Program-made: the position numbers and the translations under genes
Notes under the pieces: model-generated
Seen by the model: only the letters and a program-made list of their open reading frames with translations
Database searches by the model: none
Told to the model about the DNA's origin: nothing
IMG/VR virus record: IMGVR_UViG_2737471848_000011
Origin: a virus
Taxonomy: Duplodnaviria > Heunggongvirae > Uroviricota > Caudoviricetes
Direction: 5' to 3' (one strand)
Length of the DNA stretch: 6,707 nucleotides
Shown: piece after piece, positions 685 to 5,067 of the stretch
Position numbering within the stretch: position 1 is the first letter of the stretch
Layout of the letters: the number at the start of each line of letters is the position of its first letter

Positions 685-2499
685 TTAATTTTTGCCATCG
701 TCATTTGTGACCGATGCACATGAGGGCATCCAGTCTTCTGAATCCTCTGTCAGTATCACGTTTGAACGCAAGCCATGCTTCGTTTTCCGTTTCATATACT
801 CCCTGCCGTATTCCGCCATTGCCCCTGGCATATCCTTACCGAAGCGTGTCAGTGTTACGGGCTTACCGAATCCGTGTGCCCTCATATACGCCAGATAGGC
901 GTGATAGAGATACCTGCGCGGGCTGAACGGAATAATTTCAGCATTACCCACTAACAGGCCATCGCACATTACCGACGACATGAGATAGCCGCAGAAGTCC
1001 ACCAGCGAATCGCCCTCGCGTTTTATCACCAGGGCTTCTTCTGATTTCTGCTGCTCATATAGCAGGCGTTTAGCTTCGTCCTGGTCAGAAAAGCGTGTAA
1101 GCAGGTGGCGAATCACTACCGCCAGCTCTCCTTCTATTTTTTCAGCCAGCATAGGGTCACGTTCGTTCTCCGGTACAACTTCCGAAAAATTGAATATTAC
1201 CCGACGACGTGATATCCCACCGCTGCGGTCACTGAATGACATGGCGTTATTGTTCACCGCCAGCACGACCGCCTGAATGCGTGTTGAGTAGGGGGCTTTA
1301 TGTTTCGGGTCGATTGCCACCTTATCACCGCCTGTAATGGCCTTAATCCCTGCACCATCACCAGCGTAACGGGTCATATCCGGCATGATAATCAGCGAAA
1401 AGCCAACCACTAACGCACGTTCCCTGGCATCTTCCAGCGCCTTCATGCTTGCCGATACCGTGTTGGCCTTACCCGCCAGCATAGTGCAAATCTCCGCCAT
1501 TACGCTTTTACCGCTTCCACCCGGCCCCGTTACCTCAAGAAATAACTGCCAGTCGTACCGATTCGCCAGCACCATGAATAACGCCGCCAGTACGCGATCT
1601 GCCTTGCGGTCATTCTCAGCCACCGAACGGCGCAACCACTTCCAGAAATTCGGCGCATGTGTTGCCAGCGTTTCCCCCTCTGCTGGTGGGCTGAAAGGTA
1701 ATTCACTGGCAATTAACAACCAGTCGTTTTTGTTATGCTCCCGAAAATTACCAGTTCTGGTATCAAATACCCCGTTACTGAATCCAATCAGGTTACGGGC
1801 TGTATTCCCCATTACGGGCAAACTTAACTTCATGGTATCGACCGCCGATTTGATGGCGTTCTGCGAATAGCTGATTTCCGCATCAATAAAAATCTGCGCC
1901 ATAGTCCGCTGTAACTCTTTATCCTGTACCGGCTCCCATACAACACCGTTGTAGTGGTGAACGGTGTCAGAATCCGCATTGATTGCCAGTTCACCGCCAT
2001 AATGTGCCAGGAGAACTTCGCCGCGCTGGCTTGCTCCCATCTGGTTAAGTGCCAGTGGTGTCGCGCTGTCTTCTGTTTTTTTCTTTGCCGGAAACCGGAT
2101 AATCAGTCCGTCATCAATGTTTTTACGCTCACGGGCAAGGTATTCACGCCAGTTCTCACACTTCTGGCTGTGCATGCCATCAGGGTAATAATTCGCATTC
2201 TGTATACTTGCCGCCGCCAGCTTCTGACCAATTGCCTTAACCATTACAGGATCTAACTGTCCGGCTCTGAATATGCGCGCGGATGTGCGCCCATCAGGCA
2301 CTATTTGCAGATTTCCGATCTCTTTCAGTTGTTCATCAGCCAGCACAACAGGTGGCTCATTATCTCCAGCCATACGCGCATCGTGTTCCTGCCATTGTTT
2401 CGCGTGTGCCCAGGCATCACTACCCGCGAAAATAATTACCTCTGTGTCTTTGTGTTTTATTCCGCGTGGCTGTTTTTTTACGTTCGGTGCCAGTTTCAT
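685..2499 (-). CDS. P4 alpha-like replication protein (putative primase-associated SF3/D5-type helicase), 604 aa
   Basis: Long ORF with Walker A GPGGSGKS at aa 325-332, followed by a hydrophobic stretch then acidic residues (LVVGFSLIIMPDM) and an N-rich motif (VLAVNNNAM), as in SF3 helicases of phage/plasmid primases. Start ATG at 2499..2497 overlaps the stop of the upstream 80-aa gene (ATGA) and is preceded by a G6A6 tract. The iteron origin lies immediately downstream. Confidence 0.88.
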   Translation of the reverse strand: MKLAPNVKKQPRGIKHKDTEVIIFAGSDAWAHAKQWQEHDARMAGDNEPPVVLADEQLKEIGNLQIVPDGRTSARIFRAGQLDPVMVKAIGQKLAAASIQNANYYPDGMHSQKCENWREYLARERKNIDDGLIIRFPAKKKTEDSATPLALNQMGASQRGEVLLAHYGGELAINADSDTVHHYNGVVWEPVQDKELQRTMAQIFIDAEISYSQNAIKSAVDTMKLSLPVMGNTARNLIGFSNGVFDTRTGNFREHNKNDWLLIASELPFSPPAEGETLATHAPNFWKWLRRSVAENDRKADRVLAALFMVLANRYDWQLFLEVTGPGGSGKSVMAEICTMLAGKANTVSASMKALEDARERALVVGFSLIIMPDMTRYAGDGAGIKAITGGDKVAIDPKHKAPYSTRIQAVVLAVNNNAMSFSDRSGGISRRRVIFNFSEVVPENERDPMLAEKIEGELAVVIRHLLTRFSDQDEAKRLLYEQQKSEEALVIKREGDSLVDFCGYLMSSVMCDGLLVGNAEIIPFSPRRYLYHAYLAYMRAHGFGKPVTLTRFGKDMPGAMAEYGREYMKRKTKHGLRSNVILTEDSEDWMPSCASVTNDDGKN

Positions 2500-2738
2500 T
2501 TTTTCCCCCCTGCAACCAGCATTTCACGGATTTTGCGGATATAGCTTGCTGCACGTTTTTGATTTACGGCTTTATAATGGTCCACCAGCGTAAAATCACG
2601 GCGGTAGGTGATATTGCCTGGCGTAACGTGACGAATAACCACTCGTCCCCCACGTCTGGTGTCGCGGTAAATATCTCCGAGTCTGATTTCAGGCCGAGAG
2701 AGACCGCTGGCAGTAAAGCCAGAATTTTTCTTTTTCAT
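2496..2738 (-). CDS. Hypothetical small basic protein (80 aa), translationally coupled to the replication gene
   Basis: ATG at 2738..2736 preceded by AGGAAA; ends GGG GGG AAA AAA TGA with the TGA overlapping the alpha-like ATG. Basic composition (many R/K). This position is typical of small accessory proteins upstream of primases in P4-like elements; the family is not confirmed. Confidence 0.55.
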   Translation of the reverse strand: MKKKNSGFTASGLSRPEIRLGDIYRDTRRGGRVVIRHVTPGNITYRRDFTLVDHYKAVNQKRAASYIRKIREMLVAGGKK

Positions 2739-2768
2739 AGTTTTATTTTCCTGTCAGCAGTTCCGGTT

Positions 2769-2942
2769 TTATTTCCGCACGAATACAGAGTTCAGAAAAA
2801 ATTCAGGAGAACCAACAATCTCATTACTTTTCAGTCGGCATTGTGATTTCACTTTCCCTTTATCCAGGTAAACCAGTACGCGTCCGGTGAAATCATCTGG
2901 CACATTAAGCACTACGGGTACATGCGCTTCATGATTATGCAT
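2769..2942 (-). CDS. Putative small protein, 57 aa (MHNHEAHVPVVLNVPDDFTGRVLVYLDKGKVKSQCRLKSNEIVGSPEFFLNSVFVRK), not in the ORF track
   Basis: Hand-translated. ATG at 2942..2940 preceded by GGAGGA at about 8 nt; the start overlaps the TAA stop of the 197-aa gene with the same ATGCATAA junction seen at the 74-aa/197-aa boundary; stop TAA at 2771..2769. Fills an otherwise empty 196-bp gap in the operon. Confidence 0.45.
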   Translation of the reverse strand: MHNHEAHVPVVLNVPDDFTGRVLVYLDKGKVKSQCRLKSNEIVGSPEFFLNSVFVRK

Positions 2943-3528
2943 GGCTTACATCCTCCGTGAATTTTCTTCTGTAACGCGTCTCTGCCACATATTCCGCATA
3001 GTCCGACGCAATACTAAGAATCATTTCACCCTCTGACTTGTAGCCACTGGTATTGATAAGAAAATATGCAGCTTTCATCATGTCAGCAACGCTCAACAAT
3101 GCGCCCGCTGCATCTTCCGGTGCGCCATCAAATTCCCGTTTCAGGGAATTAAAACGATCATCACGCATGTTTACCCCCCCCTGAATGACCTGATAACCGC
3201 AACTGGTCAGCAATTCGATAAATTCCGGCAGTGTGCCGAAACAGCAATCATCACGCAGACGTTCGCGGGATACTTCAACGCCGTTTTCGTAGTGACTCAC
3301 CATGCGTCCGGTAAAATGCAGATCATCATCGTGATGGCACGTTGACGGCTTAATCAGTCGCGCACGTTCCGCCAGTTCCAGCAATGCTTCAACGCTTCCG
3401 GCAATTGCACCATCCGGCAGGTGATAATTACTTACCACGCGTCCATTCTCCACGTTGACCAGTAGCTGCCCGGAAAATATCTCGTCAAACTGAATGCTGT
3501 TAAGGTCAGAAATTGACAGGTTATGCAT
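2935..3528 (-). CDS. Hypothetical protein Z, 197 aa (unknown function; Cys/His-rich patches CHHDDD and DDCCFG)
   Basis: Start chosen at ATG 3528..3526 (MHNLSISDL...) because AGGAGG lies 6 nt upstream; the track ORF begins 6 codons earlier with no SD. The start overlaps the stop of the upstream 74-aa gene (ATGCATAA). Contains a G8 homopolymer at 3174-3181. Confidence 0.7.
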   Translation of the reverse strand: MHNLSISDLNSIQFDEIFSGQLLVNVENGRVVSNYHLPDGAIAGSVEALLELAERARLIKPSTCHHDDDLHFTGRMVSHYENGVEVSRERLRDDCCFGTLPEFIELLTSCGYQVIQGGVNMRDDRFNSLKREFDGAPEDAAGALLSVADMMKAAYFLINTSGYKSEGEMILSIASDYAEYVAETRYRRKFTEDVSHA

Positions 3529-3745
3529 GGTGCACCTCCTGCACATCAGCCATGATAATTTTTCCGGCCTTATCCAGTGCCTGATCGGCTTTTAGCTGCA
3601 CAAATGCTAAATAATGGAAGATGCATTCTGATTCTCTGGCTGCGTGTTTATGCGCCACACCAGCGATAGCAGAAATCTCAATAAGTGAATCCATCAGCGT
3701 TTTGATAGCGTCTACCGCTGCATCAGGCCATGTTGCATTACACAT
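3521..3745 (-). CDS. Hypothetical protein Y, 74 aa
   Basis: The track ORF starts at a GTG (3787); the internal ATG at 3745..3743 has GGGGGTGG upstream and overlaps the stop of gene X by 8 nt (ATGTGTAA), so I call the shorter form. Stop TAA at 3523..3521 overlaps the Z start. Confidence 0.5.
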   Translation of the reverse strand: MCNATWPDAAVDAIKTLMDSLIEISAIAGVAHKHAARESECIFHYLAFVQLKADQALDKAGKIIMADVQEVHHA

Positions 3746-3935
3746 GTTCCACCCCCTGACGAATACGGGCGGCGAATACAGCAACACAACCTGACGGGCA
3801 ACGGCTACGCGCTTCGCGTTCCGTCCAGGCGGTTACGTGGATGATTTGAGATTCTCCGGCACTCAGTGCCAGAAAACGCCACACAAAGGCCGTTTGTGTG
3901 TGTACAAGGTGTGGTATATGATTTACAGCAACCAT
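3738..3935 (-). CDS. Hypothetical protein X, 65 aa, first gene of the leftward operon
   Basis: ATG at 3935..3933 with AGGAG 5 nt upstream; the track ORF extends upstream to 4010 without an SD. Lies downstream of a predicted leftward sigma70 promoter. Confidence 0.5.
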   Translation of the reverse strand: MVAVNHIPHLVHTQTAFVWRFLALSAGESQIIHVTAWTEREARSRCPSGCVAVFAARIRQGVEHV

Positions 3936-3963
3936 AACGGCTCCTAGTTTACGTTGTTGGTTA

Positions 3964-4008
3964 GAAGCCCTGCGAGTGGTAACGACACTTGCGGGGCTTT
4001 GTCTTTTC
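3964..4008 (+). other. Plus-strand-specific hairpin followed by a U-rich tract (terminator-like), within the leader region of the leftward operon
   Basis: Arms AGCCCTGCGAGT (3966-3977) and ACTTGCGGGGCT (3987-3998) pair over 12 bp with two G-U wobbles on the plus-strand RNA, loop 9 nt, then TTGTCTTTTC. On the minus-strand RNA the two wobbles become C-A mismatches, so the structure is asymmetric. Confidence 0.35.
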
Positions 4009-4026
4009 ATCGATTACCTTGATAAA

Positions 4027-4115
4027 GGTGTCAGCCACTATATTAGTAACAGGTGTCAGCCACGTCAATAGTGTTTTTCCGTTTTCTTGTGTGTATACTG
4101 TCAGCCACCTAATAA
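4027..4115. promoter_or_regulatory. Divergent promoter/operator region with three direct repeats of TGTCAGCCAC
   Basis: Repeats at 4029-4038, 4054-4063, 4099-4108 (the first two extend to GGTGTCAGCCAC). Leftward promoter on the minus strand: -35 TTGACG (4068..4063), 17-nt spacer, -10 TAATAT (4045..4040); repeat 2 fills the spacer and repeat 1 covers the predicted transcription start. Rightward candidates: -10 TATACT (4094-4099) or -35 TTGTGT (4087-4092) with -10 TAATAA (4110-4115), either overlapping repeat 3. Confidence 0.5.
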
Positions 4116-4129
4116 CGAGGAAATCAGAT

Positions 4130-4309
4130 ATGGCAACAAAAGCAGTTAATGCAAAATCCAAAAAGCTTGAGGCTCGAGTACCACACGCAATAGCTGATGC
4201 TGTAGAAAATTTAAAGGAAGATGGCGAAAGTACAGGGCAATTTATCGTTTCGGCACTTGAAGGCGAGATCAAACGCCGCCAGCGTCGCAAGGCCAAAGAG
4301 CAGGAATAG
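4130..4309 (+). CDS. Small ribbon-helix-helix-like DNA-binding protein (59 aa), putative repressor of the switch
   Basis: ATG at 4130 with GAGG about 9 nt upstream; the longer track ORF (from 3989) has no SD and overlaps the promoter region. MATKAVNAKSKKLEARVPHAIADAVENLKEDGESTGQFIVSALEGEIKRRQRRKAKEQE fits a beta-strand (KKLEARV), helix A, G-x-S/T turn, helix B pattern with a basic tail. It is the only plus-strand gene and is followed by an intrinsic terminator. Confidence 0.6.
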   Translation: MATKAVNAKSKKLEARVPHAIADAVENLKEDGESTGQFIVSALEGEIKRRQRRKAKEQE

Positions 4310-4397: not shown

Positions 4398-4431
4398 GGC
4401 GACCTCTGATCCGGGTCGCCTTTGTTTTGTC
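4398..4431 (+). terminator. Rho-independent terminator of the RHH gene
   Basis: GGCGACC (4398-4404) / GGTCGCC (4414-4420) 7-bp GC-rich stem, 9-nt loop, followed by TTTGTTTTGTC. The reverse complement has no U-tract, so it is plus-strand specific. Confidence 0.6.
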
Positions 4432-5008
4432 ACTGAATGCGGTTGCCAAAGTAAAACTCAGGCTGATATTCACGTATCAGCCTTTTTTCTTCTTCCTCCA
4501 GCTCACGCTTTTTGCGCTTACATGCCTGTAGCTCCCTCCCCTTCTGACTAGCACTTAACTGATATTGCTCTTTACGGCGAGAAAAGTCCTGTAATGCGCC
4601 CCACGGGATACCATAAGCCCCCGTTTTTCTGATTCCTGGTATCACATTCCTGAATACCCAGTTACTGAAACGATGGGCGAATGTGCCTTGCGTCGTTGCT
4701 TTGCGGCTACGGGCTATTAGTTTGTAGAAACCTGACTCAGAGATAATGCTCATATTCTGATTTCCTCCTGGGGTGTAAGTTAAATTTACTCCCTTTTCAT
4801 CATCATCAAGCATCTGCAACGCCGTACGCGAATTGGTCAGTTCCAGCGCAGCGCAGACATCCTTTGCAACAAACCACGGATCGCCGTTCAGATACACCAC
4901 GCGAACGTTCACACTATCAAAGCGCAGAACGACCAGATCACGAAAATCACAGATTTTTTTTACATGACGTGCGTCACCCTTGCCCGTCACGGCAATATTT
5001 TTATTCAT
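4430..5008 (-). CDS. BRO-N domain protein (phage antirepressor-like), 192 aa
   Basis: Sequence DPWFVAKDVCAALELTNSRTALQMLDDDEKG...IISESGFYKLIARSRKATTQGTFAHRFSNWVFRNVIPGIRKTGAYG matches the conserved Bro-N pattern (PWFVAKDV, DEDEK, SGLY-LI-SRK, W-VLP-IRKTG-Y). C-terminal about 50 aa is charged and coiled-coil-like. ATG at 5008..5006 with GAGGT upstream; contains an A8 tract at codons 16-19. Confidence 0.8.
   Translation of the reverse strand: MNKNIAVTGKGDARHVKKICDFRDLVVLRFDSVNVRVVYLNGDPWFVAKDVCAALELTNSRTALQMLDDDEKGVNLTYTPGGNQNMSIISESGFYKLIARSRKATTQGTFAHRFSNWVFRNVIPGIRKTGAYGIPWGALQDFSRRKEQYQLSASQKGRELQACKRKKRELEEEEKRLIREYQPEFYFGNRIQ
4459..4490 (+). terminator. Second hairpin plus T6 tract (backup terminator) embedded in the 3' end of the BRO-N coding region
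   Basis: GGCTGATA (4461-4468) / TATCAGCC (4475-4482) perfect 8-bp stem, 6-nt loop, then TTTTTT (4483-4488). Confidence 0.4.
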
Positions 5009-5028: not shown

Positions 5029-5053
5029 AAAAAACCCCGCATTGCACGCGGGG
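5029..5053 (-). terminator. Rho-independent terminator downstream of the alpA-like gene
   Basis: On the minus strand: CCCCGC, 7-nt loop, GCGGGG (plus 5035-5053) followed by TTTTTT (plus A-run 5029-5034). On the plus strand the stem is followed by tatgaaag, so it acts only on leftward transcripts. Confidence 0.6.
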
Positions 5054-5067
5054 TATGAAAGATATTA

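Follow-up and report, generated by a model that had tools for sequence, protein, structure and literature searches.

A predicted sar-like cis-antisense RNA opposite the Icd-like gene of Escherichia coli satellites

What could a terminator-like hairpin serve on a strand that has no gene upstream of it? This question is raised by positions 3964-4008 of a 6,707-nucleotide stretch of viral DNA (Caudoviricetes; IMG/VR record IMGVR_UViG_2737471848_000011), the whole of which is referred to below as the window and is identical to part of an Escherichia coli chromosomal island. The hairpin is located 29 nt upstream of the start codon of a gene on the opposite strand, for which RefSeq gives the product name 'host cell division inhibitor Icd-like protein'. 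A first-pass annotation, made from the sequence alone, had pointed out that no plus-strand gene lies upstream, which is correct (the annotated genes at 685-3935 are all on the minus strand), and had suggested that the hairpin marks the 3' end of a cis-antisense regulatory RNA. Our analysis of the sequence supports the view that the feature is part of a predicted cis-antisense RNA, widespread and unannotated, which resembles sar of phage P22, is retargeted to the Icd-like gene of E. coli satellites and probably helps to keep the satellite silent. The whole explanation, i.e., a Rho-independent terminator that forms the 3' stem-loop of an antisense RNA of ~80 nt working on the leader of the Icd-like gene, is given a rough probability of 0.65.

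Structure and covariation of the hairpin

On the plus strand, positions 3964-4008 read GAAGCCCTGCGAGTG-GTAACGA-CACTTGCGGGGCTTT, followed by GTCTTTTC. In the ViennaRNA fold, 3964-3978 are paired with 3986-4000, and 8 of the 15 bp are G-C pairs. The 12-bp stem with two G-U wobbles described in the first-pass annotation holds as the G+C core of this structure (3967-3978 with 3986-3997; internal wobbles U3971.G3993 and G3974.U3990); the full stem is longer, and its base is closed by a third wobble, G3964.U4000. The wobbles had been said to exist in plus-strand RNA only, and on the minus strand they are indeed A.C mismatches. The folding energy of the plus-strand RNA is -26.8 kcal/mol (z = -5.3; none of 200 shuffles was equally stable), compared to -16.3 kcal/mol, with three internal mismatches, for the minus strand (z = -3.4); therefore, the strand asymmetry of the hairpin is real. 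Together, the last three stem bases and the tail read UUUGUCUUUUC, in which 8 of 11 bases are U, whereas the minus strand 3' of the stem reads CUAACCAAC and contains no U-tract. Sequence and folding thus reveal the hallmarks of an intrinsic terminator, i.e., a stable G+C-rich stem-loop with a U-tract directly 3' of it on a single strand, and a terminator scan ranked the hairpin as the strongest plus-strand site of the window. As a class, terminator-like sites are mildly over-represented in the window (10 found versus 6.4 +/- 2.5 expected); with so slight an enrichment, the case against chance rests on the stability of the hairpin and on its conservation with covariation.

A scan of genome contigs returned a single locus, from E. 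albertii, which carries the type of leader found in phage P4. For this reason the homologues were taken from IMG/VR (96 loci, found through the Icd-like protein) and from several E. coli genomes, and distant Icd-like loci (63-64% identity) were included. BLAST of 3700-4140 against phage records gave no match, and BLAST of the whole window against the same records matched one primase gene only. Covariation was computed on a structure-aware alignment of 32 distinct hairpins. In this alignment, 96.7% of the plus-strand cells pair, both sides are changed at 6 of the 15 pairs (34 cells), and the covariation score is 0.333, compared to 0.159 in shuffles, with none of 500 shuffles attaining the observed value. 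When the register is slid, pairing is only 36-54%. At one position, 12 cells fail to pair only because a bulge shifts by one base, which is an artefact of the alignment. Reading the columns as the minus strand lowers pairing to 81.9% and leaves no G.U pair at all: each of the 67 wobble cells, distributed over 8 of the 15 positions, is a G.U pair in the plus-strand reading and an A.C mismatch in the minus-strand one. Covariation in related elements, which had been proposed as the check on this stem, is thus present, and it is both compensatory and strand-specific.

At least nine stem types can be distinguished, for example GAAGCCCUGCGAGUG/CACUUGCGGGGCUUU, GACGCCCCGUAUGUG/CACUGCGGGGCGUU, GAAGCCCGGUUAGUG/CACUGCCGGGUUUC and GAAGCCUGUGGGUG/CACCUACGGGCUUC. 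The length of the hairpin varies among relatives (37, 36 and 35 nt), with differences in both loop and arms. The sequence of the tail is itself variable; nevertheless, the T fraction in the 10 nt after the stem is 0.56 (27 distinct tails), compared to 0.29 for the window. Similarity among related elements usually ends at ~4007-4008, where the T-tract ends, and to the right of it each element has its own repeats and its own regulator gene. Given these observations, we regard it as highly probable that selection maintains the hairpin as a structure of plus-strand RNA, one with the features of a terminator.

The predicted antisense RNA and its relatives

The hairpin makes up the 3' half of a conserved cassette (3894-4008) that also includes a promoter-like element and a 5' hairpin. 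The RNA predicted from this cassette (Table 1) folds into two hairpins, with an energy of -35.5 kcal/mol (z = -5.5), and two plus-strand hairpins were obtained for every variant folded. The 5' hairpin displays the anti-Shine-Dalgarno sequence CUCCU (3942-3946) in a 12-nt loop, GCUCCUAGUUUA (3940-3951), and pairs the complement of the start-codon region with an invariant UGGUU. The anti-Shine-Dalgarno sequence is in the loop in most variants, and in the stem in the most distant group (loci L094-L111). The plus-strand version of the 5' hairpin is the more stable one in 21 of 21 distinct versions, and its inner stems are wholly different between types, with pairing retained. Separately, the octamer TGGTTAGA (3957-3964), located between the two hairpins, is identical in almost every one of the 60 distinct modules, being replaced by TGGTTATA in two; pairing accounts for its UGGUU, not for its UAGA, and the octamer could be a protein-binding or RNase site.

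The -10 element reads TATGAT, TATGCT or TATAGT in all 60 distinct modules, with positions 1, 2, 3 and 6 invariant, and is located 35-38 nt upstream of the conserved TGGTTAGA. Position A3918 of this element falls on the third, synonymous base of a His codon. The modules use CAT for this codon throughout, and CAC does not occur; the one exception, locus L111, has TAT, which changes the His residue to Tyr, yet it retains the -10 element as TATAGT. The -35-like TTGTGT with its 17-nt spacer is present in 51 of the 60 modules, and 8 of the other 9 modules have a TGn extended -10, so that either a -35 or an extended -10 is found in 59 of 60. Real sigma-70 promoters show this pattern of one or the other. 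The conservation of the -35 element is confounded by coding, since TTGTGT lies within the HTQT codons of the Icd-like gene. The element is also the plus-strand 3' arm of a perfect 8-bp hairpin within the Icd-like coding sequence, CACACAAACGGCCTTTGTGTG then GCGTTTTCTG (3880-3900, minus strand), which is terminator-like and nearly invariant in homologues. A 9-codon plus-strand open reading frame (ORF) has its ATG at 3919, and it would be located upstream of the predicted RNA start.

A covariance model built from 41 variants (R1) gave one strong hit per element, with scores of 59-93 bits, always antisense to the start of the Icd-like gene. In the window, the plus strand scores 88 bits and the minus strand 16.5 bits; across the elements, the strand opposite the hit reaches no more than 16-17 bits. 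Among 5,426 complete E. coli genomes, 783 match an 84-nt region of the cassette, and a single genome can hold as many as four copies; the matches are always at an Icd-like (or 'ash') annotation and are never annotated as RNA. A search of Rfam at E <= 10, with the whole window and with 3860-4130, found no family at the locus, which rules out membership in C4, IsrK, sar, Esr41 and other curated families.

The start codon (3935-3933) and the Shine-Dalgarno sequence AGGAG (3946-3942) of the Icd-like gene are both covered by the predicted RNA, in agreement with the first-pass annotation, which had placed the transcript antisense to this gene and its leader. Two marks of a cis-antisense small RNA are present, a structure that covaries on the antisense strand and an overlap with the translation initiation region of the target, and we judge it likely, from the sequence evidence, that the hairpin ends a dedicated RNA of this kind. 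The suggested role as the 3' end of such an RNA is accordingly strengthened by the covariation, the conserved tail, the promoter-like element upstream and the anti-Shine-Dalgarno hairpin, the RNA still being a predicted one.

The closest relative of the predicted RNA is sar (Rfam RF00262), from the immI region of phage P22. As cited in PMC2629481 and PMC13397905, experiments (Liao 1987, Wu 1987 and Schaefer & McClure 1997) have established sar as an antisense RNA that represses translation of ant, the antirepressor gene. The R1 model gave a weak hit of 22 bits in a prophage of strain EDL933, and Rfam calls this locus a true sar gene (66.7 bits) in an arc-ant region. The RNA of the window and sar share TTGTTG.T.A.GAAGCCC...GGGGCTTC, and local alignment to sar gives z-scores of 4.9 for the window and up to 8.8 for one variant, with a median of 1.8 over all variants. 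Both are small cis-antisense RNAs (68-69 nt for sar, ~80 nt predicted here), encoded where a temperate element has its immunity or early-control functions. The promoter, a predicted one in the window, is located in the 5' end of the target gene, and from it the RNA runs back across the ribosome-binding site of the target. Their architecture is also the same: a 5' hairpin with a CUCC-type anti-Shine-Dalgarno loop, a short linker and a G+C-rich 3' hairpin, GAAGCCCUG...GGGGCUUC, the latter being present in the window RNA as GAAGCCC...GGGCUUC. In contrast, the target is the Icd-like gene here and ant in P22, and no arc, ant or mnt is adjacent in the window; the host is a satellite of the capsid-forming phage-inducible chromosomal island (PICI) type with P4-like relatives, as opposed to a P22-like phage; and the stem has 15 bp and a clearer U-run, compared to 14 bp in sar. 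The Rfam sar model (gathering score 43 bits) gave no hit in the whole window or in 3860-4130 at E <= 10. Since the family model misses the RNA and the target differs, the RNA of the window is not an Rfam sar member; by analogy, it probably works like sar and is a distant relative of it.

The first-pass annotation had referred to the RNA-based immunity of P4-like elements. In P4, a C4/CI RNA, an IsrK-like element and an a1b1 target are found on the sense strand upstream of the Icd-like ORF (74.9, 44.1 and 60.8 bits for the C4, c4-a1b1 and isrK models, respectively). None of the three models has a hit in the window; the P4-type RNA is thus absent here, and the suggested kinship gives way to that with sar. 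The P4-type leader was also found in E. albertii and in the commonest E. coli Icd-like variant, and R1 has no hit on P4-type loci, so that two unrelated RNA modules alternate at one and the same place before Icd-like genes. The type of module is independent of the similarity of the Icd-like proteins, and proteins of ~64% identity bear either type. The C4 RNA of P1/P7 and the CI RNA of P4 (RF01695) are like the window RNA in being small RNAs that control an operon headed by icd or an Icd-like gene, in their location, which in P4 and in related E. coli elements is the leader that precedes the Icd-like gene, and in the presumed logic by which the RNA holds the early or replication operon off. They differ in that they are encoded on the sense strand, are processed from the leader transcript and act through short complementary boxes, whereas the RNA of the window is on the opposite strand and has a predicted promoter and terminator of its own. 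As a separate observation, some Icd-like ORFs are over-long at the N-terminus (P0042, P0049 and, in P4, L083 669-1085), and it is to these extensions that the Pfam 'Ash protein family' (PF10554) has its matches. The extensions apparently arise from translating the RNA leader of C4/CI type, as does the old P4 'cI gene product' ORF, and PF10554 may be partly built on non-coding RNA sequence.

Two further classes of RNA invite comparison. Type I antitoxin RNAs, such as Sok of hok and SymR of symE, are likewise cis-antisense RNAs, and they cover the site where translation of a small and potentially harmful protein begins; Riedel et al. are reported to have shown in 1993 that Icd of P1 inhibits cell division. 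However, type I systems are two-gene modules, whereas the Icd-like gene, whose toxicity is only putative, heads a long operon, and the Rfam search of the window detected no hok/sok or other antitoxin family. The OOP RNA of lambdoid phages, which is made constitutively, is also a short antisense RNA with a strong terminator hairpin that lowers the expression of a regulatory gene of a temperate element. In contrast to the predicted RNA, which overlaps the 5' leader and ribosome-binding site of its target, OOP overlaps the 3' end of cII and acts via RNase III cleavage.

Mode of action and alternative explanations

The proposed mechanism is as follows. Transcription would start at a sigma-70 promoter, TTGTGT-17-TATGAT, which is embedded in codons 5-14 of the oppositely oriented Icd-like gene, and a start ~7 nt downstream of the -10 would yield an RNA of ~80 nt (3929-4008). 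The mRNA of the Icd-like gene would itself start near 4033, as its promoter-like site suggests, which would place the hairpin within its 5' leader. The antisense RNA would cross the Icd-like start codon, the Shine-Dalgarno sequence and most of the leader, ending ~25 nt short of the leftward promoter, and the leader, Shine-Dalgarno sequence and AUG of an mRNA with this start are fully complementary to it. It would pair with the mRNA leader, probably from the anti-Shine-Dalgarno loop first, and prevent ribosome binding; translational coupling, polarity or RNase III cleavage would then reduce the downstream replication operon. In this way, leaky transcription would fail to activate the satellite, while strong leftward transcription would outnumber the RNA and run across its promoter. 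The one-way terminator would keep antisense transcription off the operator/promoter region. The analogy to sar and the geometry of the locus speak, on balance, for repression of Icd-like translation and thereby for damping of the replication operon.

The gene transcription start sites listed for the island in a Cappable-seq data set of uninduced EDL933 (PMC10469882) include those of int, alpA, the capsid gene and terL, and none for the Icd-like gene, which is consistent with a silent leftward operon. Surveys of published small RNAs gave no support. The corresponding locus of strain Sakai (prophage-like element Sp7, ~1,597,428-1,597,507) is not among the Hfq-bound orphan small RNAs of Tree 2014, whose EcOnc list has no entry in Sp7; EcOnc33, EcOnc61 and EcOnc48 were looked at individually and are unrelated loci. 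The sequence of the locus is also not among the 150 novel non-coding RNAs from RNA-seq of EDL933 (Neuhaus 2017). It should be noted that the two lists are not exhaustive and that a weakly expressed or Hfq-independent RNA would escape both; therefore, they lower our estimate and do not refute the RNA. Esr41 was rejected as the identity of the RNA, being located in SpLE1 and belonging to a different Rfam family. Neither the locus nor this type of element is mentioned in the Pas small RNA paper, the ProQ paper contains nothing relevant to the locus, the cf-PICI paper (bioRxiv 10.1101/2022.09.08.507074) mentions no antisense RNA, and a search for literature on antisense RNAs at Icd-like genes of satellites found nothing.

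Besides the two list negatives, several features of the sequences weigh against an antisense RNA. The promoter match is modest, at 8 of 12 positions, and the site is absent from the list produced by a generic promoter scan and located within coding sequence, so that the protein partly explains its conservation. The outer stem of the 5' hairpin shows one-sided changes only, all of which lead to plus-strand G.U. Some variants have weak U-tracts, for example GUCGUUUCAA. Furthermore, the homologues are mostly closely related Escherichia elements and the cells of the alignment are not independent events, for which reason the distinct stem types and the positions changed are the safer measure of covariation.

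The main rival explanation, already named as the alternative in the first-pass annotation, retains the plus-strand terminator and dispenses with the RNA: the hairpin would only insulate the operator/promoter region and the divergent regulator gene from read-through or pervasive antisense transcription, and no functional small RNA would be made. In favour of such an insulator, the hairpin is positioned exactly where the operon module, which is conserved, meets the regulatory module, which is variable, and the weak promoter match within coding sequence and the lack of a small RNA at the locus in the two data sets from enterohaemorrhagic E. coli agree with it. However, the -10 element is kept at a fixed distance with its key positions invariant, including a synonymous site, and the -35 and extended -10 are compensatory; a second hairpin with plus-strand bias displays an anti-Shine-Dalgarno sequence in its loop; and the architecture matches that of sar, a dedicated antisense RNA. 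We consider insulation without an RNA unlikely.

A second alternative assigns the structure to the sense strand, as a stabiliser, processing site or translational operator in the leader of the Icd-like mRNA, with the resemblance to a terminator being incidental. The hairpin is within the predicted 5' leader, ~25-70 nt from the likely leftward start, the minus strand still folds (-16.3 kcal/mol, z = -3.4), and P4-type relatives have sense-strand RNA elements at this place. Nevertheless, none of the 67 wobble cells is of the reverse kind, the minus-strand fold is weaker by ~5-20 kcal/mol in every variant, and the conserved T-tail would have no purpose on the minus strand, which makes a sense-strand function decidedly improbable. 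Slightly less credence still is given to an element at the DNA level, i.e., a protein-bound inverted repeat or a recombination hot-spot at the module boundary. Mosaic breakpoints do coincide with the 3' end of the hairpin, and second copies of the cassette beside truncated Icd-like remnants point to recombination; yet breakpoints would be expected in any case where a transcription unit ends, the lengths of loop and arms vary, and the arms are not conserved and change with compensation, as in an RNA helix, with imperfect positions always being one-strand G.T. Finally, it is hardly conceivable that 3936-4010 encode an N-terminal extension of the Icd-like protein with the hairpin being incidental, even though an ATG-initiated ORF of 90 aa (3738-4010) spans the hairpin and some records annotate longer 'ash family' proteins: the 37-, 36- and 35-nt hairpins break the frame and the 90-aa ORF has no Pfam family, for which reasons it is rejected as coding, the hits to PF10554 come from translating the C4/CI-type leader, which is unrelated, and a good Shine-Dalgarno sequence precedes the ATG at 3935.

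Provided that the antisense RNA is made, it would represent an undescribed and unannotated family of small RNAs. About one in seven complete E. coli genomes has the cassette, and among the elements that carry it is the island regarded as the prototype of capsid-forming PICIs, in EDL933 and in Sakai (Sp7). A post-transcriptional layer would be added to the control of PICIs and P4-like satellites, which is now described via AlpA and helper-phage induction only. Icd-type early operons would then be repeatedly under the control of small RNAs, the processed sense C4/CI RNA and the sar-like antisense RNA being unrelated solutions swapped at one position, and the design of P22 sar would have spread past ant genes. 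The cassette also explains the spurious extended ORFs called at this place by some annotation pipelines. A bolder and quite tentative interpretation, for which we would claim no more than a modest chance, is that the cassette is an exchangeable RNA 'immunity' module of E. coli satellites, derived from sar and replacing the P4-type C4/CI-IsrK module before Icd-like genes, with the variable hairpins acting as determinants of specificity. The terminator stems of at least nine types and the 5' hairpins of five types reassort freely. If this interpretation is true, up to four satellites resident in one genome would each be under their own RNA only, and induction of PICIs and cf-PICIs would have a second, post-transcriptional lock beside the known AlpA switch.

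The host element and neighbouring features

The features of the locus are collected in Table 1; gene calls are from the RefSeq annotation of the identical sequence.

Table 1. Coordinates of the predicted RNA, its signals and the adjacent genes and sites in the window
Feature	Position	Strand	Remark
-35-like hexamer TTGTGT	3894-3899	+	17 nt upstream of the -10; sequence reading
-10 hexamer TATGAT	3917-3922	+	predicted antisense promoter
Predicted ~80-nt cis-antisense RNA	3929-4008	+	5' end inferred from the -10, 3' end from the U-tract
5' hairpin	3930-3962	+	3930-3939 paired with 3952-3956 and 3958-3962
Terminator stem-loop	3964-4000	+	15-bp stem, 7-nt loop GUAACGA, three G.U pairs
U-rich tail GUCUUUUC	4001-4008	+	extends UUU at the stem base
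Target Icd-like gene, 65 aa	3738-3935	-	NCBIfam NF033153, E = 5.8e-18; heads leftward operon
Leftward promoter-like site TTGACG-17-TAATAT	4068-4040	-	promoter scan; inferred start ~4033
Three exact TGTCAGCCAC copies	4029-4038, 4054-4063, 4099-4108	.	putative operators
YlcI/YnfO-family gene	4130-4309	+	divergent from leftward operon; candidate element-specific regulator

Past the Icd-like gene, the leftward operon includes small ORFs, a DUF4222 gene and then the primase gene (685-2499), all on the minus strand. The minus strand also carries, in this order, genes for an integrase, an AlpA-family regulator and a BRO-family protein, followed by the plus-strand YlcI/YnfO-family gene. Outside the window, the island goes on with an SSB gene and a prohead-protease/capsid fusion gene; from this layout, the element is a capsid-forming PICI. 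The equivalent islands of O157:H7 are Sp7 in Sakai and the prototype EcCIEDL933 in EDL933 (bioRxiv 10.1101/2022.09.08.507074).

Two of the TGTCAGCCAC copies bracket the -10 and -35 of the leftward promoter and the third overlaps the putative promoter of the ylcI-like gene. Other elements have a matching layout at this place with different repeats, and the CGTCAA motif is seen again in the right-hand modules of loci L107, L108 and L111, which are unrelated in other respects. The copies are probably operators, judging from their arrangement; this layout, with repeats that differ by element, makes the YlcI-like protein a candidate for an element-specific repressor of the leftward promoter.

A second whole cassette, with promoter, two hairpins and T-tail, is present in seven loci (L039, L045, L060, L064, L068, L080 and L100), ~750 nt from the first. 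These second cassettes precede an apparent truncated remnant of an Icd-like gene that begins MAIKEHSLLFIHTQT, and their -35, 17-nt spacer and -10 are retained despite different codons. In an O157 locus (L084 4190-4783, strain JEONG-1266), RefSeq annotates an incomplete Icd-like pseudogene at the corresponding site.

Just downstream of the primase gene, an A+T-rich segment (447-682) contains at least 10 copies of a GGTGAACAGT-type 10-12-mer in both orientations, probably an iteron-type replication origin of the island; because of these repeats, miRNA-like Rfam hits in the segment are considered spurious. Other terminator-like hairpins were found at 4398-4420 (+), 4460-4483 (both strands) and 5034-5054 (-). 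Two of them are located between the convergent YlcI-like and BRO genes, one being symmetric with T-runs on both sides, and a further one is found in the interval from the AlpA gene to the BRO gene, where Rfam gives a weak Trp-leader hit. A small ORF at 2769-2942 (-), between the DUF4222 gene and a 203-aa ORF, is a frameshifted pseudogene in the identical RefSeq record. In strain UTME-3 (L001 9089-10093), the integrase end of the island adjoins a truncated gene for the large subunit of a phage terminase, followed by lysis genes; with these flanks, the satellite seems to be situated within a resident prophage, and not at the roxA site used in O157:H7.

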